The position numbers were made by a program, and so were the translations under genes. A stretch of 50,110 nucleotides of DNA from a bacterium. Its GTDB lineage: Bacteria > Verrucomicrobiota > Kiritimatiellia > CAIVKH01. The stretch lies in assembly GCA_030432155.1 (NCBI GenBank), contig JAUIHQ010000003.1, positions 1 to 50,110 on the forward strand, read 5' to 3'. Positions 17,656-49,297 of this stretch are shown here, in pieces. Within the stretch, counting starts at the first letter, position 1, and every line of letters begins with the position of its first letter. The notes under the pieces were generated by a model. It was not told where the DNA came from. It worked only from the letters and a program-made list of their open reading frames with translations, and made no database searches.

Positions 17656-17759
17656 ACCCAAACCACCTTTCGAATCAACGGCCATCTGTATAACGGGAAC
17701 AAGGCGAAGAACATATGTGGCATTTCGGCAAAGTTCAAGCTGATCGGAATACGGGCGGG

Positions 17760-17795
17760 TTGCCCTTAATCAGCTTTTCGTGTATGGTTTCATGC
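17760..17795 (+). promoter_or_regulatory. Putative leaderless sigma70 promoter/operator of vapBC-1
   Basis: TTGCCC (17760-65), 17 bp, TATGGT (17783-88), 7 nt, ATG; imperfect inverted repeat TGTATG..CATGCA overlapping the -10. Confidence 0.5.
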
Positions 17796-18056
17796 ATGGC
17801 AACAAAAACCATATCGCTTGAACTCGATGCCTATGAGTTGTTGAAATCGGCCAAGCGGCCCGGGGAGTCCTTCTCCCAGGTCGTCCGTCGGGCCTCATTC
17901 GGCCCATCGGATGCCTCCGGCAAATCCATTCTCGAGGTTCTCCGCGAGCGCCGACCTTCCTATGGCGACACCAGCGCTGTGGCCTATCACGAGAAGCATC
18001 CGGAGAGGGACCGTCCCGCCAGCCCATCAGCCTGGGGAGAGCACCCGTCACCTTGA
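17796..18056 (+). CDS. vapB: VapB-family antitoxin
   Basis: [32 protein letters not shown] is a typical VAPB_antitox N-terminus; overlaps the toxin start. Confidence 0.85.
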
Positions 18057-18451
18057 AGTTGCTGGATACATCTTTCCTGATCGACCTGCACCGGGAGTGG
18101 GCCAAAACCGGGATGGGTCCGGCCATGAGGTTTCTCCATTCGAACGATACCGAGCAGATGGGCGTGTCGACCATTAGCCGATTGGAATTTCTGGAAGGCT
18201 TCACCCGGACCGGAGAAGGCGAACTCTTCCTCGCCCCCTTCATCTCGCTGGATGTCACCCATCAAACGGCACGAATCGGAAGCCGAATTCGCCAAGGTCT
18301 GCGGAAGGACGGTATGATGATCGGAGACTTCGACATCCTGATCGCCGCAACCGCGCTGGAGCACGGCATTGTATTGGTCACAGGCGATACCGGCCATTAC
18401 CATCGGATCCGGGATCTGGAACTGGAAGCGTACCGGGAACTCGAAGCCTGA
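18053..18451 (+). CDS. vapC: VapC PIN-domain ribonuclease toxin
   Basis: [31 protein letters not shown]; TTG start overlapping the vapB stop. Confidence 0.9.
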
Positions 18452-18458
18452 CGCTCTC

Positions 18459-18606
18459 ATACCAATTACAAATACGCATCGGTATACATGCGCCAGACGC
18501 TTGGTTTCAGGTTTCAGTGTTCAGGTGTCAGGAGGGCCTGAAACCTGACACCCGAAACCTATTGAGGAAGACCGAAACAATACCGATACGTTCTTCCGAC
18601 TGGTAT
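18459..18606. repeat. ~148 bp fold-back element: imperfect 27 bp terminal inverted repeats enclosing inverted heptamer arrays
   Basis: ATACCAATTACAAATACGCATCGGTAT (18459-85) vs reverse complement of 18580-18606, 20/27 identical; inner GGTTTCA-type x4 facing CCTGAAA-type x3. Confidence 0.7.
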
Positions 18607-19820: not shown

Positions 19821-19971
19821 GTCATGACCCGAATGCCACTAGCTTAAGCTGATTTCCCATCGTAATCGTAATCATGCTCCATCATCCTAATCCCTCAACG
19901 TTGGAGGATTAAGATCAAGATTACGATGGGGACTGCTGTGCTCCCTTAAGCTAGTACCATTCCGTCATGAC
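19821..19971. repeat. ~150 bp nested fold-back element (MITE/REP-like)
   Basis: Perfect inverted repeats ACTAGCTTAAG (19838-48)/CTTAAGCTAGT (19945-55) and CCCATCGTAATC (19856-67)/GATTACGATGGG (19919-30); outer GTCATGAC..GAATG arms; apex TAATCC..CAACGTTG..GGATTA. Confidence 0.75.
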
Positions 19972-20171: not shown

Positions 20172-20220
20172 TTTTCCAATCATTGGAAAATGCCCGGGGC
20201 GATGTTTCCAATGATTGGAA
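20172..20220. promoter_or_regulatory. Tandem palindromes TTCCAAT-N-ATTGGAA upstream of the mbh operon
   Basis: TTTTCCAAT-C-ATTGGAAAA (20172-90) and TTCCAAT-G-ATTGGAA (20206-20), centres 32 bp apart. Could be operators or a dispersed repeat. Confidence 0.5.
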
Positions 20221-20398: not shown

Positions 20399-20926
20399 AT
20401 GAAGCGGTTTGTTTCAACCCTGGTTCCGGTCATGGCGCTCTACATGTGGCTGACCGCCGGCTCCGGCGATGTATTCGGCTTGTGGGCAGCATCGGAGCTG
20501 GTGCTCGGGGCGGTCCTGAGCGTGATCACGGCCTGGCTGACCGCCCTTCACGTCGGTTCCGCCGGCGTCACCCTGCCGGTGAACCCGCTGCGCTGGATCC
20601 TTTTCGCCCTCTACCTGATCGGACCGTTTCTGTTGGAAATGGCCAAGGCCAACCTCGATGTGGCCTACCGGGTCATCACCGGCCGGATCAACCCCGGCAT
20701 CGTCCGGGTAAACTCGGGCATGAAGACGGCGGGATCGACCACCGCCCTCGCCAACTCGATCACCCTGACCCCCGGCACCCTGACCGTGGGGGTTGATGAG
20801 GAAACCAACGACCTTTTCATCCACAAGATCAACCTCACCGAGGAGGAAGCAGCCCGGTCGGCATGGGACAGCAGAGACCTGTTCGGCTTCAACCTCCCCG
20901 CCATGATCCGGAGGTTCTCGGAATGA
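20399..20926 (+). CDS. mbhA: Membrane-bound hydrogenase subunit A (MnhE/MrpE-like)
   Basis: ANLDVAYRVI, LANSITLTPGTLTV; GGGGAGG RBS; first of 14 coupled genes. Confidence 0.85.
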   Translation: MKRFVSTLVPVMALYMWLTAGSGDVFGLWAASELVLGAVLSVITAWLTALHVGSAGVTLPVNPLRWILFALYLIGPFLLEMAKANLDVAYRVITGRINPGIVRVNSGMKTAGSTTALANSITLTPGTLTVGVDEETNDLFIHKINLTEEEAARSAWDSRDLFGFNLPAMIRRFSE

Positions 20927-21180
20927 CCGGCGCCTGGACCATCGCCCTTGTCGTGCTCGCTGTTCTGATCCTGCTGGCACTTGTCCGATTGCTCCGCGGA
21001 CCATCGGTCCCGGACCGGGTGGTCGCCCTCGACGCGGTCAACACCCTCGTTGTGGCATCCATGATCATCCTCGCGGTCGTCAAGAAACAGGTCATCTTCG
21101 TCGATGTCGCCATCGTCTATGCCCTGCTATCGTTCGTGGGCCTCCTGTTCATCGCCAAGTACCTCGGGAGGGAGATGTAA
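20923..21180 (+). CDS. mbhB: Mbh subunit B (MnhF/MrpF-like)
   Basis: RGPSVPDRVVALD, DVAIVYALLSF; ATGA overlap, start MTGAW. Confidence 0.87.
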   Translation: MTGAWTIALVVLAVLILLALVRLLRGPSVPDRVVALDAVNTLVVASMIILAVVKKQVIFVDVAIVYALLSFVGLLFIAKYLGREM

Positions 21181-21533
21181 TGGAAGCAGTCGTCCTCATC
21201 TGCCTCGTGATCGGGCTCTTGTTTAACTCGTTGGGCATCATCGGGATCCTTCGGTTCCCCGACGTCTATACCCGCCTTCACGCCAGCACCAAGGCCACGA
21301 CCTTCGGATCGATCTTTGTCTCGCTGTCGGTCATTGTCTACGCCGCCGCCCGGTTCGCCGGCGATGGCGACCGTCCGATGCTCTCCTTGGCCCTCCACGT
21401 GCTGGTGGCGATGTTCGTGCTCGCGTTCACCAATGCCGCCGGCGCCCACGCCATCGCCCGGGCCGCCCACCGGAGCGGCACCCTGCCTTCCCCATCCGTA
21501 CGGGACGACCTCAACGAGGAGGCGGGCTCATGA
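21180..21533 (+). CDS. mbhC: Mbh subunit C (MnhG/MrpG-like)
   Basis: GILRFPDVYTRLHASTKATTFG, AHAIARAAH. Confidence 0.88.
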   Translation: MEAVVLICLVIGLLFNSLGIIGILRFPDVYTRLHASTKATTFGSIFVSLSVIVYAAARFAGDGDRPMLSLALHVLVAMFVLAFTNAAGAHAIARAAHRSGTLPSPSVRDDLNEEAGS

Positions 21534-21784
21534 TGCTGGTGTTGTTCCACCTTTTGATTCTCGCCGGGCTGATCATTACCGCGGCTTCGGTTGTCTATTT
21601 CCGCGACCTTCTGGCCGCCGCCATCTCGCTGGCTGCATTCAGCCTGTTGCTCGCGCTTGAATTCTACCTGCTCCAGGCGCCCGACGTCGCCATTGCCGAA
21701 GCGGGTATCGGCGCGGGGCTGACCACCGCCATCTACATCATCGCCATCCGCGGCACGAAGCGGAAGGAGGATCCGGACGAATGA
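21530..21784 (+). CDS. mbhD: Mbh subunit D (DUF4040)
   Basis: LQAPDVAIAEAGIGAG. Confidence 0.85.
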   Translation: MMLVLFHLLILAGLIITAASVVYFRDLLAAAISLAAFSLLLALEFYLLQAPDVAIAEAGIGAGLTTAIYIIAIRGTKRKEDPDE

Positions 21785-22065
21785 GAATCATCCTCGGCCT
21801 CACCATTCTTCTGGTCCTCGGGGCGGCGTTCGTTCACATCGCTAGCGATGTGCCGTTCGGCAAACCCGCGGTCACGGACATGGACGACTATTTCATCGCC
21901 AACGGACAGGAGCAGACCGGCGCGAACAACATCGTCACCGGCGTCCTGTTCGATTATCGCGGCCTCGACACCCTGATCGAGGCCACGGTTCTGTTCACCG
22001 CGGTCCTCGGGGTCAGCGTCATGTTCCGCAAGCTCAAGGAGGGCGAACAGTATGAGAATGACTAA
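21781..22065 (+). CDS. mbhE: Mbh subunit E
   Basis: TGANNIVTGVLFDYRGLDTLIEATVLF. Confidence 0.87.
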   Translation: MRIILGLTILLVLGAAFVHIASDVPFGKPAVTDMDDYFIANGQEQTGANNIVTGVLFDYRGLDTLIEATVLFTAVLGVSVMFRKLKEGEQYEND

Positions 22066-22519
22066 GGTCGTTCGCACCGTTGCCGATCTCCTGTACCCGT
22101 TCTGCATGATCTTCGGGCTGTACGTGGTGGCCCACGGGCACCTGACCCCCGGCGGCGGTTTCCAGGGCGGCGCGGTCATCGCCACCGCCACCGCATTGTT
22201 GATTGCGGCCCATCGTTATGACGACGTCTCGGCCCGGGTCAAATCCGCACGGATGAAGGTGTTTGAATCGGTCGGCCTGCTCGGCTTTCTGATCCTCGGC
22301 TTCTCCGCGATCATCCTCGGCCAGCCCGCGTTCCGGAACTGGATGCTCAGCCGCGGCTCGCTCTTCAACGATTCCGTCGCCTTCGGGGTCAACCCCGGCG
22401 CCCTGACCACCGGCGGCCTGATGCCGCTGATGAATCTTGCCGTGGGCCTGGAAGTGCTGGGCGCCCTGACCATTATTACATTGTATATGCTCTCGGGCAC
22501 GAAGGAGGATCCTTCATGA
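22052..22519 (+). CDS. mbhF: Mbh subunit F (MnhB/MrpB-like)
   Basis: HGHLTPGGGFQGG, NLAVGLEV. Confidence 0.88.
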   Translation: MRMTKVVRTVADLLYPFCMIFGLYVVAHGHLTPGGGFQGGAVIATATALLIAAHRYDDVSARVKSARMKVFESVGLLGFLILGFSAIILGQPAFRNWMLSRGSLFNDSVAFGVNPGALTTGGLMPLMNLAVGLEVLGALTIITLYMLSGTKEDPS

Positions 22520-22881
22520 ACGGCGGTTCCGTCATCATCGCCCACGCCCCGCTGTTCGCGGTGGCGGTGATCTTCCTGCTCGGGCTCTCCATCCTTTTCT
22601 TCAAGCGGAACCTGATCAAGATCCTGATGGGCATCACGCTCATCGAGGCCGCGATCAACCTGTTTCTCGTCTCCACCGGCTACCGCATGGATGCGATCGC
22701 CCCGATCTTCACCAACGCCCCGGAAGGCGCGGTCATGGCCCTGCCCACCGTGCAGGCGCTGACCCTCACCTCCATCGTCATCGGCGTGGCCTCCAGCGCG
22801 ATGATGCTGTCGTTCGTGATGCTGATCTACCGTCACTACAAGACGACCAACGTGAACCGGATCCGGGGGATGAAAGGCTGA
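22516..22881 (+). CDS. mbhG: Mbh subunit G (MnhC/MrpC-like)
   Basis: NLIKILMG, PTVQALTLTSIVIG. Confidence 0.88.
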   Translation: MNGGSVIIAHAPLFAVAVIFLLGLSILFFKRNLIKILMGITLIEAAINLFLVSTGYRMDAIAPIFTNAPEGAVMALPTVQALTLTSIVIGVASSAMMLSFVMLIYRHYKTTNVNRIRGMKG

Positions 22882-24452
22882 TGATGTCGACTCTCCAGCA
22901 ACACGCACCGGCCCTGCTGATCGCGATCCCGCTGTTCGCGGCGTTCTCCATGCCCCTCGTCGGGAAGAACCCCGGGTTCCGCAAGATGTGGACGATCGTG
23001 CTGATGACCCTGACCTCGCTGACCGGTCTCATGCTCGCCTGTTCGGTGTTCCGGGACGGCTCCATCGTGTATGTGTTCGGCGCGGCCGACGCCTCGCAGG
23101 CCCTGGCCGAAGGGTCCGGGTTCCCGATCCGCATCATGTTCACGATCGACGCGATGAGCGCGCTGATGACGATCATCATCGCCATCCTCGCCTTTGCGGT
23201 CACCCTCTACTCCCTCGCCGCCGACGGCGGGCACTCGGGCCTCGAGGGTTTTTATTCCCTGCTTTTCCTGATGGTGGCGGGCGCGCTGGGCATGGTGAAC
23301 ACCGGCGACCTGTTCAACTTCTTTGTCTTCCTCGAGGTTGCCTCCCTGTCCGGGGCCGCGCTCGCCGCGTTCCGTATCGACAAGGGGGTGGCGGTCGAGG
23401 CGGGCTTGAAATACGCGCTGATCAGCGGCCTCGGCGGCCTGAGCGTCCTCGTCGCCATCGGCCTCCTCTACAGCCAGTACAATGCCCTCAACATCGCCGA
23501 GCTGGCCGCGCGCATTCAGTTCACCCGGCTCGATATGATCGCCTTCGTGCTGCTGGCGGTTCCCCTCGCGATGAAATGCGGCGCGGTGCCGATGCACTTC
23601 TGGACGCCGGACACCTACGCCGCCGCACCCTCATCGGTCACTGCGTTCCTCGTGGTCACCAGCCAGGCCAGCCTGTATGCCCTGTTCCGGATCTGCTTCA
23701 CCCTGTTCGGCGATCCGGCCGCGATCAACATCGCCGTCTTCGGATGGTTCATCGTCGCACTCGGTGTCCTGTCGATGTTCGTGGGCGTGACCATGGCCAT
23801 TCCCCAGAAGGACGTGAAGCGGCTGATGGCCTACCACGCGATTTCCCAGACCGGCTACATGCTCCTCGGCGTGGGGGTGGGACTGGCGGTGCTCGGGAAT
23901 GCCAAGGCGCTCGGCGACTACGGCATGACCTCGATGAGCGGCGGTCTGTTCCACATCATCAACCATGCGATTTACAAGGGCCTGCTGTTCCTGACCGCGG
24001 GCGCGGTGTTTTACCGCATCGGCACCCGCAACCTCAACCGGATGGGCGGACTCGGGCATACCATGCCGGTCACCATGATCTGCTTCATCGCCGGCGCCCT
24101 CGCCATCGCCGGCATCCCGCCGTTCAACGGATTCGCCTCGAAGCTCCTGATCTACGAATCGGTCTTTGCCTTCAATCCCTTTATCGCGATCGTGGCCATG
24201 CTGGTGAGCATCCTTACCCTCGCCTCGTTCGTGAAGGTGTTCCACTCGATGTTCATGGGCCCCCGACAGCCGGATCACGGCGAGGTCAGGGAGGCCCCGC
24301 GTCCGATGGTCATCGGCATGGCCCTGCTCGCGGTGCTGGTCATTCTGTTCGGCCTGATTCCGACCGCGGTGGTCGAGAGCATCATACGGCCCGCCGCCGA
24401 AGCCCTGCTCGACCGGGCCGGCTACATTGCAACCGTGCTGGGAGGACCCTGA
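22881..24452 (+). CDS. mbhH: Mbh subunit H, proton-translocating antiporter-like subunit (MnhD/NuoM-like)
   Basis: GDLFNFFVFLEV, KCGAVPMHFWTPD, KRLMAYH, NHAIYKGLLFL, GIPPFNGFASK. Confidence 0.9.
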   Translation: MMSTLQQHAPALLIAIPLFAAFSMPLVGKNPGFRKMWTIVLMTLTSLTGLMLACSVFRDGSIVYVFGAADASQALAEGSGFPIRIMFTIDAMSALMTIIIAILAFAVTLYSLAADGGHSGLEGFYSLLFLMVAGALGMVNTGDLFNFFVFLEVASLSGAALAAFRIDKGVAVEAGLKYALISGLGGLSVLVAIGLLYSQYNALNIAELAARIQFTRLDMIAFVLLAVPLAMKCGAVPMHFWTPDTYAAAPSSVTAFLVVTSQASLYALFRICFTLFGDPAAINIAVFGWFIVALGVLSMFVGVTMAIPQKDVKRLMAYHAISQTGYMLLGVGVGLAVLGNAKALGDYGMTSMSGGLFHIINHAIYKGLLFLTAGAVFYRIGTRNLNRMGGLGHTMPVTMICFIAGALAIAGIPPFNGFASKLLIYESVFAFNPFIAIVAMLVSILTLASFVKVFHSMFMGPRQPDHGEVREAPRPMVIGMALLAVLVILFGLIPTAVVESIIRPAAEALLDRAGYIATVLGGP

Positions 24453-24453
24453 G

Positions 24454-24795
24454 ATGGATGTCACGACCACCCTGGAAACCGGATACGGCGCCTGGAGCCC
24501 GCTGGTGTGGCTGGCCGCGTTCGCGGTCACGATGGTCATCGCCCTGCTCATCCGGTCCACCGGCGAATCCCGTTACAAGAAGGATTCCAACCAGACCAAG
24601 CCCTTCATTTCCGGTAACGAAGCCCCCCAGGATGCATACCATATCCGGGCCGGCAACCTGTACTGGGGCTATCTCGAAGCATTGAAGGGTTACTACCAAA
24701 AGCTGGTTCCCCTTCACACCGGGATCATGACGGACTATGTTCTATGGATGTTCGGGGTGGTCGCGATCATGCTTCTGATAGGACTTTCGATATGA
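24454..24795 (+). CDS. mbhI: Mbh subunit I
   Basis: QTKPFISGN, HTGIMTDYVLW; lies between the antiporter and small subunits; GGAGG RBS before ATG 24454. Confidence 0.75.
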   Translation: MDVTTTLETGYGAWSPLVWLAAFAVTMVIALLIRSTGESRYKKDSNQTKPFISGNEAPQDAYHIRAGNLYWGYLEALKGYYQKLVPLHTGIMTDYVLWMFGVVAIMLLIGLSI

Positions 24796-25223
24796 AGTAT
24801 CCCAACTCCTTCCGCAAATCGCTGTGGACGTTCCTGTTTAACGCGGGCTCGTGCAACGGCTGTGAAATCGAGATGGTGGCCCTGCTGACCCCGCGCTACG
24901 ACGTGGAACGGTTCGGGATCAAGCTGGTGGGTTCCCCCCGCCATGCCGACCTGCTCCTCATCACCGGCCCGGTCACCCGCAAGATCGCCCCCCGCCTGCG
25001 CATGGTCTATGAACAAATGCCCGACCCCAAGGTGGTCATCAACGTCGGCGTGTGCGGTGTCTCCGGCGGCGCCTTTTACGAGTCGTACAGCCTGATCGGG
25101 CCGGTCGATGACATCATTCCCGTCGATGTCTACGTTCCGGGCTGCCCGCCCCGGCCGGAGGCGATCATTCACGCCGCGGTGAAGGCGCTGGAAAAACTGG
25201 AACGGGCCGAGGTGGCATCATGA
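24792..25223 (+). CDS. mbhJ: Mbh hydrogenase small subunit (NuoB-like)
   Basis: GSCNGCEIE, SPRHAD, GVCGVSGG, PVDVYVPGCPPRP. Confidence 0.9.
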   Translation: MKYPNSFRKSLWTFLFNAGSCNGCEIEMVALLTPRYDVERFGIKLVGSPRHADLLLITGPVTRKIAPRLRMVYEQMPDPKVVINVGVCGVSGGAFYESYSLIGPVDDIIPVDVYVPGCPPRPEAIIHAAVKALEKLERAEVAS

Positions 25224-25912
25224 CGACGGCAATCCTGAATTCGGAGGAAATCCTCGCCCACATTGTGAAGGTCGCGGGCGAGGAATCGATGGTCGATACC
25301 CGGGTCGCGGCCTGGCCCGAGGGCACCAAGGGCGTGATGAGCCACTCGGTGTGGATCCGGATCAAGCGAGAACGGTTCAAAGTTGCCGTGCGCTCCCTGT
25401 TCGACCTCGACTACCCCCACATGGCGGTGATCTCCGGGGCGGACCTCGGCGACGACATTGAACTCCTCTACCACTTCTACCTGTTCTACGGCCACCGGCA
25501 CAAGGAAGTGCTGGTCACCATCGCGGTATCCGTGCCCAAGACCGACCCCACAATTCCGACCATCTCCGACCTGATCCCCGGCGCCCTGATCAGCGAGCGC
25601 GAGAAGCAGGAAATGCTCGGGGTGGTCGTCACCGACATCCCCGACAGCCGCCGGATCTTCCTGCCCGAGGACTTCCCCGAGGGGGTGTATCCCTGGCGGA
25701 AGGATGAAACCGGCATTCCCGAGGACATGATCAAGCAGCTCTGGAAAGTCGGACGGCCCCAGGAGCTGCTGGAGGATCCTCCGCCTCCGAAGAAAGCGCC
25801 CGCGCCGAAGCCGGAGGAGACGCCGGCCGGGGATGCGAACGCACCCGCTCCCGAAGCGGCGAAAGAAGACCCACCGGCGGACAAGCCGGCTCAAGGAGGA
25901 GAGGGCTCATGA
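25220..25912 (+). CDS. mbhK: Mbh subunit K (NuoC-like) with a Pro/Ala/Glu-rich tail
   Basis: LYHF, IPGALISEREKQEMLG, FLPEDFPEGVYPWRKD. Confidence 0.85.
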   Translation: MTTAILNSEEILAHIVKVAGEESMVDTRVAAWPEGTKGVMSHSVWIRIKRERFKVAVRSLFDLDYPHMAVISGADLGDDIELLYHFYLFYGHRHKEVLVTIAVSVPKTDPTIPTISDLIPGALISEREKQEMLGVVVTDIPDSRRIFLPEDFPEGVYPWRKDETGIPEDMIKQLWKVGRPQELLEDPPPPKKAPAPKPEETPAGDANAPAPEAAKEDPPADKPAQGGEGS

Positions 25913-27159
25913 TTGCTTCCACCGGAAAAGACAGTGCGATCACCTCGGCCTACATGGCCCAGATCGGTCCGAGCCATCCCGCGCTCAAGGAACCGGTCAT
26001 GTTCACGTTCGAGCTGGACGGCGAACGCGTGGTCTCCGCGGATTTCGCCCCCGGCATGGCCCACCGCGGCGTGGAATGGGCCGGCACCCGGCGCAACGCC
26101 ATCCAGACCCTGTATCTCGCCGAACGAATCTGCGGCATCTGCGGCATCACCCACTCGGTATCCTATGCCCGGGCGATCGAGCAGATCGCCGGCATCGAGG
26201 TTCCGGCCCGGGCCCACTACATCCGGAGCATCGTCGGTGAGCTGGAACGCATCCACTCCCACCTGCTGTGGGCCGGCGTGGCCGCCCATGAGCTGGGGTT
26301 CGACTCCCTGTTCTTCCTGACCTGGAAGGTCCGGGAACGGGTCATGGATGTGCTGGAGTATTTGTGCGGCAACCGGGTCCACTACGGCATTATGCAGATC
26401 GGCGGGGCCAACCGGGATATCACGCCCGACCAGTACCCCACCGTGCTCGAAGCCCTCGATTACTTCGAACAGCATTTCGGCCAGCTTGCCAAACTGTTCC
26501 TCGAGGATGACAGCATCCGTATCCGCTGCCGGGACTGCGGCGTCCTGACCAAACAGGAAGCGCTGGAGCTGTGCGCGGTCGGACCGACCGCCCGGGCCTC
26601 CGGCGTAGCCAAGGATGTCCGCCAGGACCATCCCTATGCCGCCTACGCCGACGTCGAGGTCAAGGCCATCACCCCCGACCAGTTCACCGGCGAGGTGCAT
26701 GGCGACGTGTTCGACCGGATCATCGTCCGGCTCTACGAGGTCAAGCAGTCGATCGACCTGACCCGCATCTTTATCGAGAACATGCCCCCGGCCGGACCGA
26801 TCCTTGCCGAAGAGAAAATGCCCAAGCTGCTGGCCCTGATCCGCAAGGCCGAAGGCGAAGCCATCGGACGCCACGAGGCGCCGCGGGGCGAAGTGCTCCA
26901 TTACCTCAAGCTGAACAAGAACGTCCAACCCGAGGTATGGAAAGTGCGCGCGCCATCCTACAACAACTACATGCCGTGGATTCCGATGTTGGAAGGCGAA
27001 CAGATCGCGGACATTCCGATCATCGTCGCCTCCATCGATCCCTGCATCTCCTGCTGCGACCGCGTGGCCTTCGTGCGCGGGGACCGGAAGGACATAGTCA
27101 CCAAGGAAGATCTCCACCGGATGTCGGTGGCGAAACAGAGGAAGATTCAACATGGGTAA
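25909..27159 (+). CDS. mbhL: Group 4 [NiFe]-hydrogenase large (catalytic) subunit
   Basis: GPSHPALKEP; L1 ERICGICGITH; ELERIHSH; EAPRGE; L2 DPCISCCDR followed by a ~31 aa extension consistent with proteolytic maturation. Confidence 0.93.
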   Translation: MIASTGKDSAITSAYMAQIGPSHPALKEPVMFTFELDGERVVSADFAPGMAHRGVEWAGTRRNAIQTLYLAERICGICGITHSVSYARAIEQIAGIEVPARAHYIRSIVGELERIHSHLLWAGVAAHELGFDSLFFLTWKVRERVMDVLEYLCGNRVHYGIMQIGGANRDITPDQYPTVLEALDYFEQHFGQLAKLFLEDDSIRIRCRDCGVLTKQEALELCAVGPTARASGVAKDVRQDHPYAAYADVEVKAITPDQFTGEVHGDVFDRIIVRLYEVKQSIDLTRIFIENMPPAGPILAEEKMPKLLALIRKAEGEAIGRHEAPRGEVLHYLKLNKNVQPEVWKVRAPSYNNYMPWIPMLEGEQIADIPIIVASIDPCISCCDRVAFVRGDRKDIVTKEDLHRMSVAKQRKIQHG

Positions 27160-28144
27160 TGTCCTCCTGATCCTGTTCGGCACGCTGGCGGTGGCCGCGT
27201 TCGGCATCATCACCGGCCTGGTGTTTCTCGGCGTGGACCGTATTCTCGTCGCCCGGATGCAGGCCCGGATCGGCCCCCCGTGGCAACAGCCGTTTTTCGA
27301 CTTCTTCAAGCTGATGTCGAAGGAAAACGTGATACCCCGCAACAGCATCCCGTGGCTGTTCAATCTCGCTCCCCTGCTCGCGCTGGCATCATCGATCGTC
27401 CTCCTCCTCTATCTGCCGATCGGCAGTTTCCCCGCCCTGCTCGCGGCCCACGGCGACCTGATCCTGATCGTGTACCTGTTGATCGTCCCTGCGCTGGCCA
27501 TGGTGGTGGGCGGCTTCGCCTCCAGTTCTCCCTACGCGACCATCGGGGCCCAGCGCGAAATGGTGACGATGATTTCCTACGAGCTTCCGTTGGCCACCAT
27601 CGCGGTGGCGTATGCGTGGAAACTCGGCCAGGCCGGGGTGGCCCATCCCTTCGCCCTCTCCTCGATCACCGCGAATCCCATATGGGGTCTCGTGGGGCCG
27701 GTCGGCCTCGCCGGCGCAGTCCTTCTACTGCTGGTGCTGATCGTGGTCACGCCGGGCGAACTCTCCCGGATTCCCTTCGACACCCCGGAAGCGGAAACCG
27801 AGCTGGCGGGCGGCTTGCTGGTGGAATATTCCGGCCGCAACTTCGCCCTGTTCTACCTCGCCCTCGGGGTGAAATCGATCGTGATGGCGGCCCTGGTCGT
27901 GGCCCTGTTCTTCCCGTGGAACGTGTCCGACTTCATCGCCTTGCCGACGGTGGCGGCCCGTATCGCCGACCTCGCGTTCTGGCTGTTGAAGATTGAAGTC
28001 GTGATCTTCTTCGCGGCCTCGCTGATCCGGATCTCGCTGGCCCGTTTGCGGATCAATCACGTGGTATCGCTGTACTGGAAATATCTCGGGGCCGTGGGCT
28101 TTCTCGCTCTCGCCCTGCTGATGATCGACGGGATGATTGCCTGA
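27152..28144 (+). CDS. mbhM: Mbh subunit M (NuoH-like membrane anchor)
   Basis: ARMQARIGPP, QPFFDFFKLMSKE, PFDTPEAETELAGGLLVEYSG. Confidence 0.9.
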   Translation: MGNVLLILFGTLAVAAFGIITGLVFLGVDRILVARMQARIGPPWQQPFFDFFKLMSKENVIPRNSIPWLFNLAPLLALASSIVLLLYLPIGSFPALLAAHGDLILIVYLLIVPALAMVVGGFASSSPYATIGAQREMVTMISYELPLATIAVAYAWKLGQAGVAHPFALSSITANPIWGLVGPVGLAGAVLLLLVLIVVTPGELSRIPFDTPEAETELAGGLLVEYSGRNFALFYLALGVKSIVMAALVVALFFPWNVSDFIALPTVAARIADLAFWLLKIEVVIFFAASLIRISLARLRINHVVSLYWKYLGAVGFLALALLMIDGMIA

Positions 28145-28159
28145 AAGGCGGATGATACG

Positions 28160-28561
28160 ATGAAATTGCCGATGATTCCCGAGCTGCTGAAACAGCTCAA
28201 GAAAAAGCCGGTCACCAATGCGTTCCCGGCGAAGCATCTGCCGAAATCCCTGGTCGAGTATCTTGAGGATGTCGAAGCCGGCCGGGCCCAGATCAACGCC
28301 CCGGTTCCCATCCCCCCGAACTTCAAGGGCAAGCTGAAATACACCCGCGCCACCTGCACCGGTTGCGGCATCTGCGTACGGTTCTGTCCCGCCCATGCGC
28401 TGGAGATGATCCGGAGCGAACGCAAGATCCGGGTCATGATCGGCCAGTGCATCGGCTGCGAACTCTGCACCACCACCTGCCCCGAGGGATCGCTTTCCAA
28501 AAGCGATGAATTCCTCTGCGCTGACACCGACCGTTATTCCTGCGACTGGGTGCTGAAGTAA
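28160..28561 (+). CDS. mbhN: Mbh subunit N, 2x[4Fe-4S] ferredoxin-like (NuoI-like)
   Basis: CTGCGICVRFCP and CIGCELCTTTCP. Confidence 0.9.
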   Translation: MKLPMIPELLKQLKKKPVTNAFPAKHLPKSLVEYLEDVEAGRAQINAPVPIPPNFKGKLKYTRATCTGCGICVRFCPAHALEMIRSERKIRVMIGQCIGCELCTTTCPEGSLSKSDEFLCADTDRYSCDWVLK

Positions 28562-30732: not shown

Positions 30733-31026
30733 ATGAAAAGGACGCAAATCCAACTCCCGGACAGCCTGCACCGGGAAGCGACCCGGGTTGCCGAGGACAA
30801 GGAGATCTCCCTGGCCGAACTGGTCCGACGAGGACTGGAATACATGATCGCGGTATCACCTGCGGGTGACCGGGAAGGGGCGGTGTGGCGGATGCCCGAG
30901 CCGGTGGACCTGGGTTCAACCGATCCGTTTGCAGCGGAGAGCTGGCGCAGCGACCTTCACATGACCGACAAGCTCGCAGCCGAGGAACGCGAGGACTACG
31001 ATACAAAGGATCATGACCGGCCATGA
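30733..31026 (+). CDS. vapB: Ribbon-helix-helix antitoxin
   Basis: MKRTQIQLPD...ISLAELVRRGLE; ATGA overlap with the PIN toxin. Confidence 0.8.
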   Translation: MKRTQIQLPDSLHREATRVAEDKEISLAELVRRGLEYMIAVSPAGDREGAVWRMPEPVDLGSTDPFAAESWRSDLHMTDKLAAEEREDYDTKDHDRP

Positions 31027-31460
31027 TCTCCTGCGATACGAACATCCTGTTTCCGGCTCTTGACCGGTCATCGGCTCGACACAAGGCAGCCCGGACATTT
31101 CTCGAAACCTATACGACCCGTGAGGATTTCTGCGTGGCCGAACAGGTTCTGATGGAACTGTACGTTCTTCTTCGCAATCCCACCGTCTGCCGCAACCCCA
31201 TGACGGCCGGCAAAGCTGCTGCGGTTATAAAAACATTTCGGTCGAATCCTCACTGGCGTATCGTGGATGTGGTGCAGGACCCGGGAATCATGGAGTGGGT
31301 GTGGAACATGGCTGCAAACAACGACCTCGCCTATCGCCGGCTTTTCGATCTGCGGCTCGCGGCAACCCTCCTTCATCACGGTGTGACGTCCTTTGCAACC
31401 TGCAATGAAAAAGACTTTCAGGATCTGGGCTTCACCACCGTCTGGAACCCATTCGATTGA
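31023..31460 (+). CDS. vapC: VapC PIN-domain toxin
   Basis: SCDTNIL, QVLMEL, FDLRLAATL, ATCNEKDF. Confidence 0.88.
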   Translation: MISCDTNILFPALDRSSARHKAARTFLETYTTREDFCVAEQVLMELYVLLRNPTVCRNPMTAGKAAAVIKTFRSNPHWRIVDVVQDPGIMEWVWNMAANNDLAYRRLFDLRLAATLLHHGVTSFATCNEKDFQDLGFTTVWNPFD

Positions 31461-31683: not shown

Positions 31684-34500
31684 ATGACAAACCAACCGCT
31701 GATCCGGCCTCTGTACCGGTGCCTGCTTGCCGCCGCCATCCATGCCGGCGGGTCGGCCTTCCCGCTCCACGCCCAATCCAACTGGACGGTGATCGGCTGG
31801 AACAACCTTGGCATGCACTGCATGGACAGTGATTACTCGGTCTTCTCGATTCTCCCTCCGTACAATACATTCCATGCTCAGGTCATCGATGCCTCCGGCG
31901 ACCTGGTCACCGATCCCGGCGCGGCAGGGATCGGCGTCGGGTACCATGCGGTCGCCGACCTTAACGGCTCCCTGAACCGCACCTCCCGCGACAAAAGCAA
32001 TTTCTGGCAGTACGACCAGGCCCTGTTCGGCATCGATCTGCCGGAGAATACCGGCCTGCCGGTACCCGGCCCGGAGATGTTCCACATGCCCGGCACAAAC
32101 AACGAACCGCAGGGGATGCGGTTTGAAACCGGCCTGAACTGGTTCGCCGCGCACGGGGTTCCCATTGCGCCCTATGATGATAACGACAAGCCTAACCAAT
32201 ACCCGATGATGCGCCTGACGGTCACCAACAATGCGGGCCATGTGCTGGCCATGACGGATATTGTGCTGCCGGTTTCCGACGAGATGGACTGCAAGCTCTG
32301 CCATGCCTCCGGATCCGGTCCGGATGCCGAACCGACCGCAGGCTGGGTATGGGACAGCGATCCCGGGCGGGATTACCGGCTGAACATTCTGCGCATGCAT
32401 GACGAGCTGCAACTCGGTTCCTCGACCTATAGCAATGCCCTCGCCGCCCACGGGTTCCATCCCGGCGGGTTGCTTCCCACGGTAACCGAAAACGAGCGAC
32501 CGATTCTGTGCGCATCCTGTCACCTCTCGGAAGCCCTGCCGGGAAGCGGTATTGAAGGCATCCCGCCCCTGACCGAAGCCATGCACAGCCGCCATGCGGT
32601 TGTCATCGACCCGCGCAACAACATGGCGCTGGATGCGGACGCCAACCGCCAGGCCTGCTATACCTGCCATCCCGGCTCGGAAACCCGTTGCCTGCGCGGT
32701 GCCATGGGCCGGGCCGTGGCATCGGACGGGTCCATGCTGATGCAATGCCAGAGCTGCCACGGCGGGATGGCCGAGGTTGGCAGTCCCACCCGCACCGGAT
32801 GGCTCGATGAGCCGAACTGCCAGGCCTGCCATGTGGGGAGCGCAACCAACTCTTTCGGGCTCATCCGGTTTGTCGACGCTTTCACCAACGGCAGCCTGCG
32901 TGTGCCCCATGAGGACATGTTCGCCACGAATCCCGACACCCCGGCCCCCGGCCATTCATTGTACCGGTACTCCGCCGGTCATGGCGGGCTCCAATGCTCG
33001 GCCTGTCACGGCTCGACTCACGCCATTTATCCGACGGCTCTTCCGAATGACAATGTGTCCATGGCTCAGATCCAGGGCCATGCCGGAACCCTCAACGAGT
33101 GCACATCCTGCCATGCATCGATGCCGAATACCCGCAACGGAGGACCTCATGGCATGCATACCATCGGGCAGGCATGGATCAATGATCACAACGATGCCGC
33201 TCAGCAGCTCGGTGCCAATTCCTGCCGGACCTGTCACGGGCAGAATGGTGAGGGGTCGGTTCTATCGCTGGCCTTTTCGGCAAAATCCCTTACATCGGAA
33301 AAAGGCAATGTGACGTATTTCAAGGGGCAGAAGGTAACCTGCTGGGGCTGTCATAATGGTATGTTTGAGAGTGATCCAACCAGCAAAGGCGTTCCGACGG
33401 TTTCCGACGTACATGCGGTGACAACGTCCGGCATCCCGGTGGCCATCACCCTGAATGGATCCAATCTCCGCATCATCGATCAACCCCGCCGGGGACAGGT
33501 CGCCCTCGCGGGCGGCATTGCAACCTACTATCCGGATTCCGCCTTTGCCGGCGAGGACCGCTTCACATTCGCCGCCAACAACGGCTTCAACGATTCCAAT
33601 CTCGGTACGACAACCATCCGGGTTGAGCCGCATCCCGACGGGCTCGCACCGCCCGAACCCGCCGCCATCTTCGCCTTCGGGACCGCAACGAATGATGACC
33701 TGGCCTTTGTCTCCCGCCTTGGCGGCGCCTACCGCCTGGAAGCGGCGACCAGTCTGACCCAGCAGGCGTGGACCGAGGTGGTCTCCCCGGTCTGGGGCCG
33801 TACCGACGTCACCCGTGTACCCAACCAGGCCGTGTTTACCTACATGCAGATGTTCCGGGTGGTCAGCATCGATGCGCCCGCGGCCCCGACCCCTTCGACG
33901 GACCGGGCAGCGGACCCTGCATACGACGCGGGATGGCTGGACGCATCCAATGGCGGCGTCGGGTTCAGCAACTGGGTCCTCAACGTCACCGGCGGTTCCG
34001 GCGGACATTTCATCGCCGACACCAACGCTCCCGATCTCAATGCAGGCGTCCGGAGCTGGGGACTGTGGGCAAACAGCGGAAGTTTGGCCGAGGCCATTCG
34101 GTCGTTTGCGACACCCTTGAACGATGGGGATGCGGTAATCCTTCACGTCGAGAACAACTATGTCGATACCGGGAACCGGGTGGGGATCGACTTTCTGAAC
34201 GCCTCGGGCATTCCGCTGGTTCGGTGGCAATTCACCGGAGGTGATGACGTGTACCAGGTGGAGGATTTTGCCGGATTGCGCGACACCTTCATCCCCTGGT
34301 CCAACCTCGGCTGGGACGTATCCCTTCGCATCACCGGCGACAGCGACTATCTTCTCAGTTGCGGCGACCATCACATACCGGGCATTCTCGTCAGCCATGC
34401 CGACCGCCGGGTCGCCGCCATCCGGCTGTGGAACGACAACGCCGGCTCCGGATCCGATCACGACCTGTATATCAGCGACCTGATGGTCCAGACGCCGTAA
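31684..34500 (+). CDS. Secreted nine-heme cytochrome c with C-terminal Ig/cadherin-like and beta-rich domains
   Basis: Signal peptide; WNNLGMHC N-terminal domain; CxxCH x9 (CKLCH, CASCH, CYTCH, CQSCH, CQACH, CSACH, CTSCH, CRTCH, CWGCH); Big_9-like YYPDSAFAGEDRFTF. Confidence 0.85.
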   Translation: MTNQPLIRPLYRCLLAAAIHAGGSAFPLHAQSNWTVIGWNNLGMHCMDSDYSVFSILPPYNTFHAQVIDASGDLVTDPGAAGIGVGYHAVADLNGSLNRTSRDKSNFWQYDQALFGIDLPENTGLPVPGPEMFHMPGTNNEPQGMRFETGLNWFAAHGVPIAPYDDNDKPNQYPMMRLTVTNNAGHVLAMTDIVLPVSDEMDCKLCHASGSGPDAEPTAGWVWDSDPGRDYRLNILRMHDELQLGSSTYSNALAAHGFHPGGLLPTVTENERPILCASCHLSEALPGSGIEGIPPLTEAMHSRHAVVIDPRNNMALDADANRQACYTCHPGSETRCLRGAMGRAVASDGSMLMQCQSCHGGMAEVGSPTRTGWLDEPNCQACHVGSATNSFGLIRFVDAFTNGSLRVPHEDMFATNPDTPAPGHSLYRYSAGHGGLQCSACHGSTHAIYPTALPNDNVSMAQIQGHAGTLNECTSCHASMPNTRNGGPHGMHTIGQAWINDHNDAAQQLGANSCRTCHGQNGEGSVLSLAFSAKSLTSEKGNVTYFKGQKVTCWGCHNGMFESDPTSKGVPTVSDVHAVTTSGIPVAITLNGSNLRIIDQPRRGQVALAGGIATYYPDSAFAGEDRFTFAANNGFNDSNLGTTTIRVEPHPDGLAPPEPAAIFAFGTATNDDLAFVSRLGGAYRLEAATSLTQQAWTEVVSPVWGRTDVTRVPNQAVFTYMQMFRVVSIDAPAAPTPSTDRAADPAYDAGWLDASNGGVGFSNWVLNVTGGSGGHFIADTNAPDLNAGVRSWGLWANSGSLAEAIRSFATPLNDGDAVILHVENNYVDTGNRVGIDFLNASGIPLVRWQFTGGDDVYQVEDFAGLRDTFIPWSNLGWDVSLRITGDSDYLLSCGDHHIPGILVSHADRRVAAIRLWNDNAGSGSDHDLYISDLMVQTP

Positions 34501-46983: not shown

Positions 46984-48285
46984 ATGGATCATTTACTACT
47001 GGCCCGCAGCCAGATGGCCTTTGCCCTCGGGTTCCACATCATCTTCGCGTCGATCTCGATGGTGATGCCGTTCCTGATGTTTCTTGCCTACCGCGCCTAC
47101 CTGAAAACCCGCGATGATGCGGACCTGCGCCTGACCCGGGCCTGGATGAAAGGCAGCGCGATCCTGTTCGCAACCGGTGCGGTCAGCGGTACGGCCCTGA
47201 GCTTTCAGCTCGGCCTGCTGTGGCCGACCTTCATGGAGCATGCAGGCCCGATCTTCGGCATGCCGTTCTCGCTGGAAGGCGCGGCGTTTTTTCTCGAAGC
47301 CATCTTTCTCGGCCTCTTCCTGTATGGGTGGGGCCGCATTCCCGAGAAGCTTCACCTGTTTTTCGCCCTGATGGTCGGCGTGTGCGGCCTTGCCTCCGGC
47401 ATCCTCGTGATCGCGGCCAACGGCTGGATGAATGCCCCGGCCGGCTTCGACTGGGTGAACGGCCGCGCGGAAAACATCGATCCGTGGGCGGCGATGTTCA
47501 ACCGGGCCTGGCCGCTCCAGGCCCTTCACATGCTGATCGCGGCCTTCCAGGCGACCAGCATCGCCGCCATCGGACTGCATGCCGTCGGCCTGATGCTGAA
47601 ACCCGGCGCGGTATTTCACCGACGGGCCACGCAGTTCCTTGTCCCGTGCTTTGTCATCAGCTCGCTCGTCCAACCGCTGGTCGGCGACCTCAGCGCCAAA
47701 TCAGTCGCAGAACGGCAACCGGAAAAGCTGGCGGCCATGGAGGCCCACTTTCACACCGAATCACGCGCCCCCCTCCTGATCGGCGGGTGGCCGGACGAGG
47801 AAACCGAGACCGTTTCGTGGGGAATCAGGATTCCCGGCGGATTGAGCTTTCTCGCATTCGGCGATGTATCTGCCGAGGTCAAGGGCCTCGATGCGTTCCC
47901 CGAAGACGAACGCCCGCCGGTCGCCATCACCCACCTCGGCTTCCAGGTCATGGTCGGATTGGGCATGCTGATGGTGGTCATCGCCCTCGTATACCTGTAT
48001 GCCGGATGGAAGAAGATCGATCTGTTTCGCAGGCGATGGTGGCTCAAGCTCATGGTCGCCATGATACCCGCAGGATTCATTGCCCTGGAAGCGGGGTGGA
48101 TTGTCACCGAGGTGGGACGGCAGCCATGGATCATCTACCGGGTCATGAAAACCGCGGATTCGGTGACCCCGGTGACCGGTCTCGAATGGAGCTTCCTGAT
48201 CATCGTGATCCTGTATCTGACCCTGGGTGCGATATCGCTGTTTCTGCTCTGGCGGATGATGAAGCTCGAAACGGAGAGGGCCTGA
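46984..48285 (+). CDS. cydA: Cytochrome bd ubiquinol oxidase subunit I (short Q-loop)
   Basis: GFHIIF, GAVSG, FFLEAIF, QPEKLAAME, GWIVTEVGRQPW. Confidence 0.95.
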   Translation: MDHLLLARSQMAFALGFHIIFASISMVMPFLMFLAYRAYLKTRDDADLRLTRAWMKGSAILFATGAVSGTALSFQLGLLWPTFMEHAGPIFGMPFSLEGAAFFLEAIFLGLFLYGWGRIPEKLHLFFALMVGVCGLASGILVIAANGWMNAPAGFDWVNGRAENIDPWAAMFNRAWPLQALHMLIAAFQATSIAAIGLHAVGLMLKPGAVFHRRATQFLVPCFVISSLVQPLVGDLSAKSVAERQPEKLAAMEAHFHTESRAPLLIGGWPDEETETVSWGIRIPGGLSFLAFGDVSAEVKGLDAFPEDERPPVAITHLGFQVMVGLGMLMVVIALVYLYAGWKKIDLFRRRWWLKLMVAMIPAGFIALEAGWIVTEVGRQPWIIYRVMKTADSVTPVTGLEWSFLIIVILYLTLGAISLFLLWRMMKLETERA

Positions 48286-48286
48286 C

Positions 48287-49297
48287 ATGGAGATCACCTT
48301 TGCATTCCTGATCGTGGCCCTCGCCGCCTATGTCCTCTTTGGCGGGGCGGATTTCGGCGGGGGACTGCTCGAGGCGTCCCTTCACCGTCACCCGAAGCTT
48401 CAGCACCGGCTTCAAGCCACCATGGGGCCGGTCTGGGAGGCCAACCATGTGTGGCTGATCGCGGTGATCGTGATCCTGTTTGTGGGATTTCCCGTGGTCT
48501 ATGCCCGGTTGCTGACCGCGCTGTTTGTCCCTGTCAGCATCGCCCTTGCCGGCATCATCCTGCGGGGGTCCTTCTTTACCTTCCGCAAGTACGACCCGGA
48601 ACCGGAGAACCGCTCCGCGCTTTACAGCGTGTTGTTTAGAGCCAGTTCCGCCCTTTCCCCGGCCATGTTCGGCTTCGCCGCCGCCGCCATCCTCCAGCCG
48701 TTCCCGGTTGCAACCGGTGATTCTCCCCTCACCTTTTCCGAACTCTATATTCAGCCGTGGCTGACCTGGATGGGCCTGTTCTGCGCGATCTTTGTGAATG
48801 CGCTCTTCGCATACCTCGCCGCGGTCTTTTTCTATGGCGAAGTCAGCCCCGCGGAAGACCGAGCCGTGATTCGGACCCGGATCATCCTGTTTTTCGCCGC
48901 GACCTTCTTTTCCGGCGGCGCGGTGCTGGCATGGGGCATGACTCACGAGCTTGTGAATCTGTCCCGCGCCTTCACCCCGCTTCACCTGCTCATCCATGCC
49001 GCGGCATTTGCCGGCATCATCTGGATGATCGTTGCGATCCGGCGGAACCGCACCTGGCAGATGCGGTTGGCCGCCGGGGTTCAAACCCTGGCCATTCTCG
49101 GCAACTGGCACCATATCCGATATCCGGTGATGCTGGCCTTCGACGACGGCACAATCCTCACGGTCCGGAACAGCGCGGCGCCGGCGGTCACCATCTTCTG
49201 GCTGAACATCGGTCTCGTTGTGGTCCTCGCCCTCGTCCTCCCCCTGCTGGTCTACCTGTACCGGGTATTTCAGGATGCCCCGGATACACAGGCCTGA
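48287..49297 (+). CDS. cydB: Cytochrome bd ubiquinol oxidase subunit II
   Basis: GGADFGGG, GPVWEANHVWLI, LRGSFFTFR. Confidence 0.93.
   Translation: MEITFAFLIVALAAYVLFGGADFGGGLLEASLHRHPKLQHRLQATMGPVWEANHVWLIAVIVILFVGFPVVYARLLTALFVPVSIALAGIILRGSFFTFRKYDPEPENRSALYSVLFRASSALSPAMFGFAAAAILQPFPVATGDSPLTFSELYIQPWLTWMGLFCAIFVNALFAYLAAVFFYGEVSPAEDRAVIRTRIILFFAATFFSGGAVLAWGMTHELVNLSRAFTPLHLLIHAAAFAGIIWMIVAIRRNRTWQMRLAAGVQTLAILGNWHHIRYPVMLAFDDGTILTVRNSAAPAVTIFWLNIGLVVVLALVLPLLVYLYRVFQDAPDTQA

Follow-up and report, generated by a model that had tools for sequence, protein, structure and literature searches.

The 50,110-nt contig JAUIHQ010000003.1 (C335) of the Kiritimatiellia metagenome-assembled genome (MAG) GCA_030432155.1, analysed here over its whole length and referred to as the window, is predicted to encode a complete Mrp-Mbh-type energy-converting [NiFe] hydrogenase, a respiratory complex known chiefly from archaea. 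Its 14 consecutive, co-directional open reading frames (ORFs), in the order mbhABCDEFGHIJKLMN, occupy positions 20399-28561 of the + strand. Taken together, the analyses favour, with a probability of about 0.7, a reading in which this Mbh-type hydrogenase would couple ferredoxin-driven H2 evolution to the build-up of an ion gradient, and in which the complex would have an origin related to stem Methanomicrobiales. Hydrogenase subgroup names (4d, 4g etc.) follow the literature, and the enzyme is termed Mbh-type throughout.

Gene content and enzyme family

The expected Pfam families were matched by 13 of the 14 ORFs (MbhA-H and MbhJ-N), while the ninth ORF, which had no Pfam match, was recognized by the NCBIfam model for MbhI (Table 1). 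The small membrane subunits specific to Mbh enzymes, MbhD, MbhE and MbhI, were all found (PF13244, PF20501 and NF053600, above cut-off). All four Ni-Fe cysteines are present in MbhL, in the motifs RICGICGITHS (C75, C78) and DPCISCCDR (C379, C382), and are invariant across a 14-sequence MbhL alignment. MbhJ contains four cysteines (CxxC...C...C) for the proximal [4Fe-4S] cluster, and MbhN two CxxCxxCxxxCP motifs.

The longest-ORF starts of mbhB, mbhI and mbhJ were judged to be probably too early and were revised; the true starts are inferred to be the ATG codons at 20923, 24454 and 24792, because these are preceded by a GGAGG-like sequence and abut the preceding stop. In the case of mbhB, whose ORF opens at 20863, the ATG overlaps the mbhA stop and has GGAGG ahead of it. 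With the revised starts, 11 of the 13 junctions overlap by 1-14 nt, and the remaining two are gaps of 1 and 15 nt.

Comparison with solved structures gave the same-letter chain of the Pyrococcus furiosus MBH (6CFW) as the best match for all five subunits tested (A, H, I, L and M). An earlier note, made from the DNA alone, had described a large subunit with all four Ni cysteines within an mbhA-N order like that of P. furiosus, with nearly all genes translationally coupled. Its gene list and coordinates agree with the ORFs and with the Pfam and NCBIfam matches, the cysteines and the overlapping junctions are as it described, and the assignment to the P. furiosus order is upheld by gene order, by families and by the wide margins of the 6CFW chains.

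Table 1. Genes of the predicted mbh operon, with revised starts, family matches and matches to solved structures
Gene	Product	Positions	Strand	Length (aa)	Family match	Structure matches (bits)
mbhA	MrpE-like	20399..20926	+	175	PF01899 MNHE, E 9.9e-31	6cfw_A 105.7; next best 66
mbhB	MrpF-like	20923..21180	+	85	PF04066 MrpF_PhaF, E 1.3e-17; NF009242, 105.2 bits (cut-off 89)	
mbhC	MrpG-like	21180..21533	+	117	PF03334 PhaG_MnhG, E 1.1e-23; NF009312, 159.7 bits (cut-off 122)	
mbhD		21530..21784	+	84	PF13244 MbhD, E 5.1e-19	
mbhE		21781..22065	+	94	PF20501 MbhE, E 3.8e-10	
mbhF	MrpB-like	22052..22519	+	155	PF04039 MnhB, E 4.7e-28; NF006248, 168.2 bits (cut-off 92)	
mbhG	MrpC/NuoK-like	22516..22881	+	121	PF00420 Oxidored_q2, E 4.2e-22	
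mbhH	MrpD/NuoL-like antiporter subunit	22881..24452	+	523	PF00361 Proton_antipo_M, E 2.9e-53; NF006240, 708.4 bits (cut-off 662)	6cfw_H 358.5; next best MBS, 182
mbhI	ORF opens at 24427 (TTG)	24454..24795	+	113	NF053600 'MbhI', 125.9 bits (cut-off 95)	6cfw_I, sole match
mbhJ	Small subunit; ORF opens at 24744	24792..25223	+	143	PF01058 Oxidored_q6, E 5.9e-33	
mbhK	NuoC-like	25220..25912	+	230	PF00329 Complex1_30kDa, E 1.3e-23	
mbhL	[NiFe] large subunit	25909..27159	+	416	PF00346 Complex1_49kDa; PF00374 NiFeSe_Hases	6cfw_L 376; HycE 238; MBS 157
mbhM	NuoH-like	27152..28144	+	330	PF00146 NADHdh, E 6.4e-67	6cfw_M 204; next best 99
mbhN	2x[4Fe-4S]	28160..28561	+	133	Fer4 families; NF006221, 130.3 bits (cut-off 124)	

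Mbx enzymes are not known to have the Ni-Fe cysteines. The sulfane reductase MBS/Mbx (PDB 6U8Y) has a homologous modular architecture that includes an Mrp module; it was rejected as a candidate since all four Ni-Fe cysteines are present here and its chains score far below those of MBH (157 for 6u8y_L versus 376 bits for 6cfw_L, and 182 versus 358 bits for chain H). FHL-type and other formate- or CO-coupled group 4 enzymes (Mfh, Mch, Coo) were rejected on the lower score of HycE (238 versus 376 bits), and no Pfam family of formate dehydrogenase or CO dehydrogenase was matched among 36 ORFs chosen across the 50-kb window. Ech (group 4e), with six subunits and no Mrp module, was rejected because of the eight extra genes present here, MbhA-G and MbhI.

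In Escherichia coli, the C-terminal tail of HycE is cut off by HycI. The 31-residue tail that follows DPCISCCDR in MbhL aligns to this C-terminal peptide of HycE, and the deposited 6CFW chain stops at the same DR; the tail is therefore taken to be the usual maturation peptide, which a HycI-type protease probably removes after Arg385.

The complex thus shares with P. furiosus MBH the same 14 subunits in the same order, with intact Ni-Fe and Fe-S ligands, but it differs in its host, presumably a mesophilic bacterium rather than a hyperthermophilic archaeon, and in the low-complexity tail of MbhK. This tail, rich in Pro, Ala, Lys and Glu, covers approximately residues 184-230 (window 25769-25909), and the alignment with MbhK of G022, the closest relative, ends at residue 183.

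Origin and distribution of the operon

In a protein collection, the best matches to MbhL were metagenome proteins (87%, 85% and 79% identity), followed by proteins of Kiritimatiellae, Verrucomicrobia, Lentisphaerae or Opitutae (63-69%) and of Methanomicrobiales (up to 63%); such proteins carry the JGI label 'membrane-bound hydrogenase subunit alpha'. A scan of species-representative genomes gave at least 556 relatives among at least 599 pattern matches, of which the best 80 were retained. By title, these 80 comprise 21 from Verrucomicrobiota, Kiritimatiellae, Lentisphaerae or Opitutia, 2 from Atribacterota, 1 from 'Proteobacteria', 1 from an 'uncultured bacterium' and 55 from archaea, mostly Methanomicrobiales. 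All 14 genes occur in identical order and spacing in the full-length loci titled Verrucomicrobiota/Kiritimatiellae and in those of Methanomicrobiales. The Methanomicrobiales enzymes, with 57-64% identity in MbhL and 59-67% in MbhH, belong to the other domain of life, and the role proposed for the methanogen enzyme is the reduction of ferredoxin or heterodisulfide-linked chemistry rather than fermentative H2 release. For every subunit, the window's sequence resembles the bacterial copies somewhat more than the archaeal ones (for example, 53-70% versus 59-67% for MbhH, and 60-82% versus 55-68% for MbhD). In a Thermococci-class sample, 37 of 61 genomes were matched, in identity tiers of 58-61%, 49-52% and 46-48%, with further matches at 41-47%. 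Many of these genomes contain two MbhL paralogues ~8.3 kb apart (for example, G416 C110, 472071 and 480398), which suggests tandem Mbh-type operons.

A maximum-likelihood tree of MbhL (58 rows, 405 columns, LG+C20+F+G4 PMSF) was rooted with two other group 4 large subunits of the window's class, which are 45% identical by tblastn. Here 17 class-mates and one MAG titled 'Proteobacteria' form a clade (99/97), which is sister, at 94/82, to 20 Methanomicrobiales (100/100). One further Methanomicrobiales row lies outside both sister clades, joined at 100/99. Outward from there follow Atribacterota, then a Thermoplasmata-type clade, and then, at the base, two separate low-identity Thermococci-class clades (47-52% in MbhL), of which we infer the 47-48% clade to be the P. 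furiosus type. An approximately unbiased test rejected a single clade of all bacterial rows (p 9.6e-5), the bacterial group having been named after the tree had been seen. In a FastTree of MbhH (56 rows), the window groups with bacterial sequences in a clade of 16 rows (98), next to 37 archaeal rows. This agrees with MbhL, indicating that the antiporter and hydrogenase modules share one history.

The most parsimonious reading of these trees has the enzyme passing from archaea to bacteria twice independently, once at the base of the Kiritimatiellia clade, and the data support a putative old transfer of the whole operon from archaea to bacteria. The donor of the operon would have been an archaeon akin to stem Methanomicrobiales, the recipient an ancestor within Kiritimatiellia; later, the operon would have reached, or survived only in, the present lineage of its order. 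The earlier note had supposed a Kiritimatiellota/Verrucomicrobiota host, a likeness of MbhK/L to Methanomicrobiales sequences, and an old transfer suggested by host-like GC content. The host does belong to the same genome-taxonomy class as MAGs titled Kiritimatiellae; the likeness holds for MbhL, both in identity and in the sister clade; and the age fits a class-wide bacterial clade nested among archaea, with a GC content of 0.626 for the operon, 0.609 for the window outside it and 0.600 genome-wide. The note had also named, as a finding that would speak against its reading, MbhL falling in a vertically inherited, already described clade of this phylum. This holds in part: MbhL does fall in a clade common to 34 of 400 other sampled class genomes. 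No paper on this clade was found in the full-text literature searched.

The distribution of the operon was examined in 400 other sampled genomes of the class, 60 of which match MbhL at E ≤1e-90. The present Mbh type (≥60% identity) is found in 34 of the 400: 30 in family f29 (36 sampled), 2 in f48, 1 in f57 and 1 in f3. In the remaining 26, identities are only 42-49%, and the matched proteins are other group 4 enzymes. A 400-genome sample of the phylum contained nine other carriers, all nine of them class-mates. With 34 carriers in the class sample, the inter-domain transfer is not this organism's own event. These other Kiritimatiellia operons (L007-L022 and others) belong to the same clade, with MbhL identities of 60-72% (81% for the partial copy of G022), but their hosts are in other orders of the class. 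The window's own order consists of a single family with 21 genomes in 10 genera, and the operon is absent from all 20 others (9 genera), 14 of which are ≥90% complete.

The nearest relative, G022 (family f3, another order), is collinear from A to L, where it is cut by a contig end, and its upstream flank is unrelated. Its DNA identity to the window is 72%, which argues against a recent transfer, and in the MbhL tree it forms with the window (100/99) one of three basal lineages of unsettled order within the class clade. PdxA, used as a yardstick of divergence, gave 57-62% identity within the family, 53% to G022 and 51-55% to f29; it saturates, and therefore cannot date the relation between the window genome and G022. 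The copy in the window genome is old.

Two groups of loci depart from the full-length arrangement. In L013, the 8.2-Mb MAG titled 'Proteobacteria', only MbhJ-N are present, and its MbhL (64% identity) lies inside the Kiritimatiellia clade. A long-branched sub-clade of mostly rumen-titled Kiritimatiellae (L034, L039, L070 and L084, with L110, L112, L114 and L115) has kept MbhL and MbhM, with MbhN in one of four genomes (L034/L110) and no MbhA-K detectable in the upstream sequence of up to 10 kb. Two genomes of this sub-clade have a 583-aa open frame at MbhL, and the sub-clade looks like a derived architecture.

Approximately 180 nt upstream of mbhA, two copies of the 15-bp palindrome TTCCAATNATTGGAA lie 32 bp apart (20174..20220); these are the two matches in the window, against 0.01 expected. 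Genome-wide, 30 matches at ≤1 mismatch were found (on contigs C33, C60, C109, C218, C290, C369, C411, C419, C426 and others), of which at least 8 form in-phase pairs whose spacers and flanks are unrelated. Housekeeping genes immediately downstream of such pairs include PGI, DHDPS, a DAHP-synthase-family gene, rnpA, isocitrate/isopropylmalate dehydrogenase and OsmC. The palindrome also occurs in two rumen Kiritimatiellae loci (L070 8708-8783 and L084 6403-6479), and in none of 156 other loci, all archaeal ones included. The pair is a candidate host-type promoter element or operator of a global regulator, and on this basis the operon appears to be integrated into host control. In a promoter and terminator scan, sites were no more numerous than in shuffled sequences.

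The window is a whole contig of a 3.89-Mb MAG of 466 contigs, 86% complete. It is host-like: its flanking genes have relatives in the family, and its GC content, even along the window, is close to that of the genome. The HD-domain gene just downstream of mbhN has 64-73% identity to homologues in 18 of 20 family genomes, and relatives in nearby positions were also found for the histidine kinase and sigma-54 regulator (69-71%), LysM amidase (50-54%) and methyltransferase genes. The 17-20 kb around the HD-domain gene were compared in 10 family genomes, where the neighbours differ (an RNase T/TPR/kinase/FabA/FabB set in one relative, a class II ribonucleotide reductase in another), and no clean insertion (empty) site could be demonstrated in these 10. 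Summed contig depth in runs X1 and X2, which look like one data set, is ~2-8, mostly 4-6, over flanks and operon alike. The public contigs among those listed are ≤1.7 kb, and none of them bridges the operon and a flank, by which contiguity is neither proved nor disproved. No RNA run containing this DNA was listed.

Three other accounts of the operon's history were weighed. That an archaeal or foreign fragment was joined to a Kiritimatiellia contig during assembly or binning is conceivable for a 466-contig MAG for which none of the listed public contigs covers the operon together with both flanks, but the closest relatives of every subunit are class-mates rather than archaea, GC content is even, both sides have family-level relatives, and depth is similar over flanks and operon apart from a 31-fold bin at a hairpin near 18.5 kb; such an artefact is very improbable. 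Somewhat less remote, though still improbable, is a transfer in the opposite direction, of a bacterial invention passed to Methanomicrobiales and other archaea. The Kiritimatiellia and core Methanomicrobiales are sisters that join only at 94/82, and the next branch out, Atribacterota, is bacterial; yet the outgroup root places one Methanomicrobiales row, the Thermoplasmata-type clade and both Thermococci-class clades outside the Kiritimatiellia clade, the fewest changes give two gains in bacteria, and the nine carriers in the 400-genome phylum sample are all of the same class.

The third alternative concerns events within the class: the operon may have been ancestral to the window's order and lost in the nine other sampled genera, instead of being acquired laterally. 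The deep, separate branch formed with G022, the 72% DNA identity, the GC content near that of the host and the host-type palindrome pair would all fit such an ancestry, which we regard as a serious but rather unlikely option. Against it, none of the 20 order-mates carries the operon, most of them being nearly complete genomes, the nearest carrier is in another order, and the stretch from the methyltransferase to the HD-domain gene holds other genes in family relatives. Lateral entry into this genus is moderately favoured over repeated loss.

Proposed function and its genomic context

MBH of P. furiosus evolves H2. The most likely function of the complex predicted here is ferredoxin-driven H2 evolution coupled to ion export. 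We hypothesize that reduced ferredoxin (for example, from pyruvate:ferredoxin oxidoreductase, PFOR) would give electrons to the Fe-S clusters of MbhN and MbhJ, that these would reach the Ni-Fe site in MbhL, where protons would be reduced to H2, and that the released energy would move ions through MbhM/H and the Mrp-like MbhA-G module. The resulting Na+/H+ gradient could then be used by an ATPase.

The genome contains several of the components that such an enzyme would require. A search for maturation genes that covered HypB, HypD, HypE and HypF found all four: HypD and HypE on C94 (L149), next to a group-3b-like [NiFe] hydrogenase that has a HycI protease of its own, and HypB and HypF on C311 (L152), beside a NuoE/F/G-linked Hox-like [NiFe] hydrogenase. 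A third further pair of small and large [NiFe] subunits, with a protease, is on C106 (L151), and an orphan HycI-family protease is on C74 (L150); overall, the genome has three HycI-family proteases. A fragment of PFOR was found at a contig end (504 bits, model positions 818-1165). In this genome, 86% complete, PF02906 detected no [FeFe] hydrogenase, and Rnf was likewise not found, the sole PF03116 (RnfD/NqrB) match being nqrB within nqrABCD (C13, L157), and the genome has no NuoD-like paralogue of MbhL. As neither an [FeFe] hydrogenase nor Rnf was found, Mbh is the sole ferredoxin-linked membrane complex found, which fits the H2-evolving, ion-exporting direction known from P. furiosus. The presence of Na+-NQR together with cytochrome bd suggests that the organism both respires and ferments.

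Two ATPase rotor subunits were identified, a V-type K subunit (C83:3442-3912) with SQ...QGK...ET and an F-type c subunit (C286:4896-5276) with K...EG. The SQ...ET of the V-type subunit may be Na+-like; a comparison with solved rings that bind Na+ yielded no usable match for this subunit. A fuller scenario can be put forward tentatively, with somewhat less than even confidence: one ancient transfer from a stem-Methanomicrobiales-like archaeon, subsequent moves between orders, host-type regulation, a role as the sole membrane outlet for ferredoxin, and a Na+ economy shared with Na+-NQR and the V-type ATPase.

The same complex might instead run mainly in reverse, taking up H2 and spending the ion gradient on the reduction of ferredoxin. 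The sister clade consists of hydrogenotrophic methanogens, and this role has been proposed for the energy-converting hydrogenases of Methanomicrobiales; one paper has their membrane hydrogenases turning chemiosmotic energy into reduced ferredoxin (PMC10451490), and another, from 2009, reports mbh operons resembling that of P. furiosus in the Methanomicrobiales M. labreanum and M. hungatei (PMC2686161). The present host could also generate a gradient by other means, through its Na+-NQR, cytochrome bd and multihaem cytochromes. This host, however, bears sulfatases and a PFOR, and neither an [FeFe] hydrogenase nor Rnf was found in it, as would suit an organism that has to rid itself of reduced ferredoxin, and the characterized homologue works in the direction of H2 evolution, so that we consider a mainly reverse operation unlikely.

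Several points weigh against the preferred reading of an H2-evolving, ion-exporting enzyme of archaeal origin. Sequence does not reveal the catalytic direction. With the genome at 86% completeness, an [FeFe] hydrogenase and Rnf may simply be unassembled. The F-type c subunit lacks the Na+ signature Q...ES and would presumably be of the H+ type. The root of the MbhL tree rests on two long outgroup branches, and long branches meeting at the base were flagged. Finally, the bacterial Mrp-linked 'Mbh' in print is classed as HydDB group 4g (PMC8542988).

This group 4g 'Mbh' was reported from Cloacimonadota and Omnitrophota MAGs, and the chemistry proposed there for these fermentative bacteria has electrons passing from ferredoxin to H2 while the Mrp module builds a Na+ gradient. 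The likeness to the window's clade concerns this proposed chemistry, and the other group 4 large subunits of the class are 42-49% identical to MbhL. An Mrp-Mbh-like supercomplex has been described in Atribacteria (bioRxiv 10.1101/536078), and for Kiritimatiellaeota bins only a generic mention of group 4/4e was found (bioRxiv 10.1101/2020.04.01.018762). A group 4c hydrogenase has been mentioned for another lineage of the Planctomycetes-Verrucomicrobia-Chlamydiae (PVC) group. A search of full-text literature on Mbh or group 4 hydrogenases in Kiritimatiellia, Verrucomicrobiota and Atribacterota returned no paper on the present clade, which the supplementary tables of MAG surveys may list.

Since this type of enzyme, the chemistry it performs and its occurrence in bacteria were known before, the gain is incremental. 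The clade, too, is already in public data; what stands is that a complex of 14 genes has a well-supported origin in the other domain. An archaeal-type Mrp-Mbh complex persists in its entirety in a class of polysaccharide-degrading bacteria, and it is a candidate for the means by which some Kiritimatiellia could obtain additional energy and supply H2 to partners, for example methanogens. Being alone in its order in carrying the operon, and with an apparent lack of the [FeFe] hydrogenase/Rnf pair as far as the assembly shows, the organism is a clean case for asking whether Mbh alone can balance ferredoxin in a bacterium.

Other features of the window

No tRNA and no Rfam family were found in the window. 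Two VapBC-like pairs, each a small ORF followed by a PIN-domain gene, lie ~2 kb to either side of the operon region (17715-18451 and 30733-31460), and only the first small ORF matches an antitoxin family. Between the first PIN gene and a 386-aa gene is a REP-like hairpin (18503-18558; GGTTTCAGG...CCTGAAACC), at which the summed contig depth in runs X1 and X2 is ~31, compared to ~5 nearby, so that the element occurs more than once in the community or in the genome. A long imperfect palindrome of ~115 nt (19840-19957) lies in the 600 nt that separate mbhA from the divergent 386-aa gene.

Downstream of the operon, the same contig encodes a 938-aa multihaem cytochrome with MtrC/c7-like domains (31684-34500), subunits I and II of a cytochrome bd oxidase (46984-49297) and a c554/c7-like cytochrome (49343-50110).

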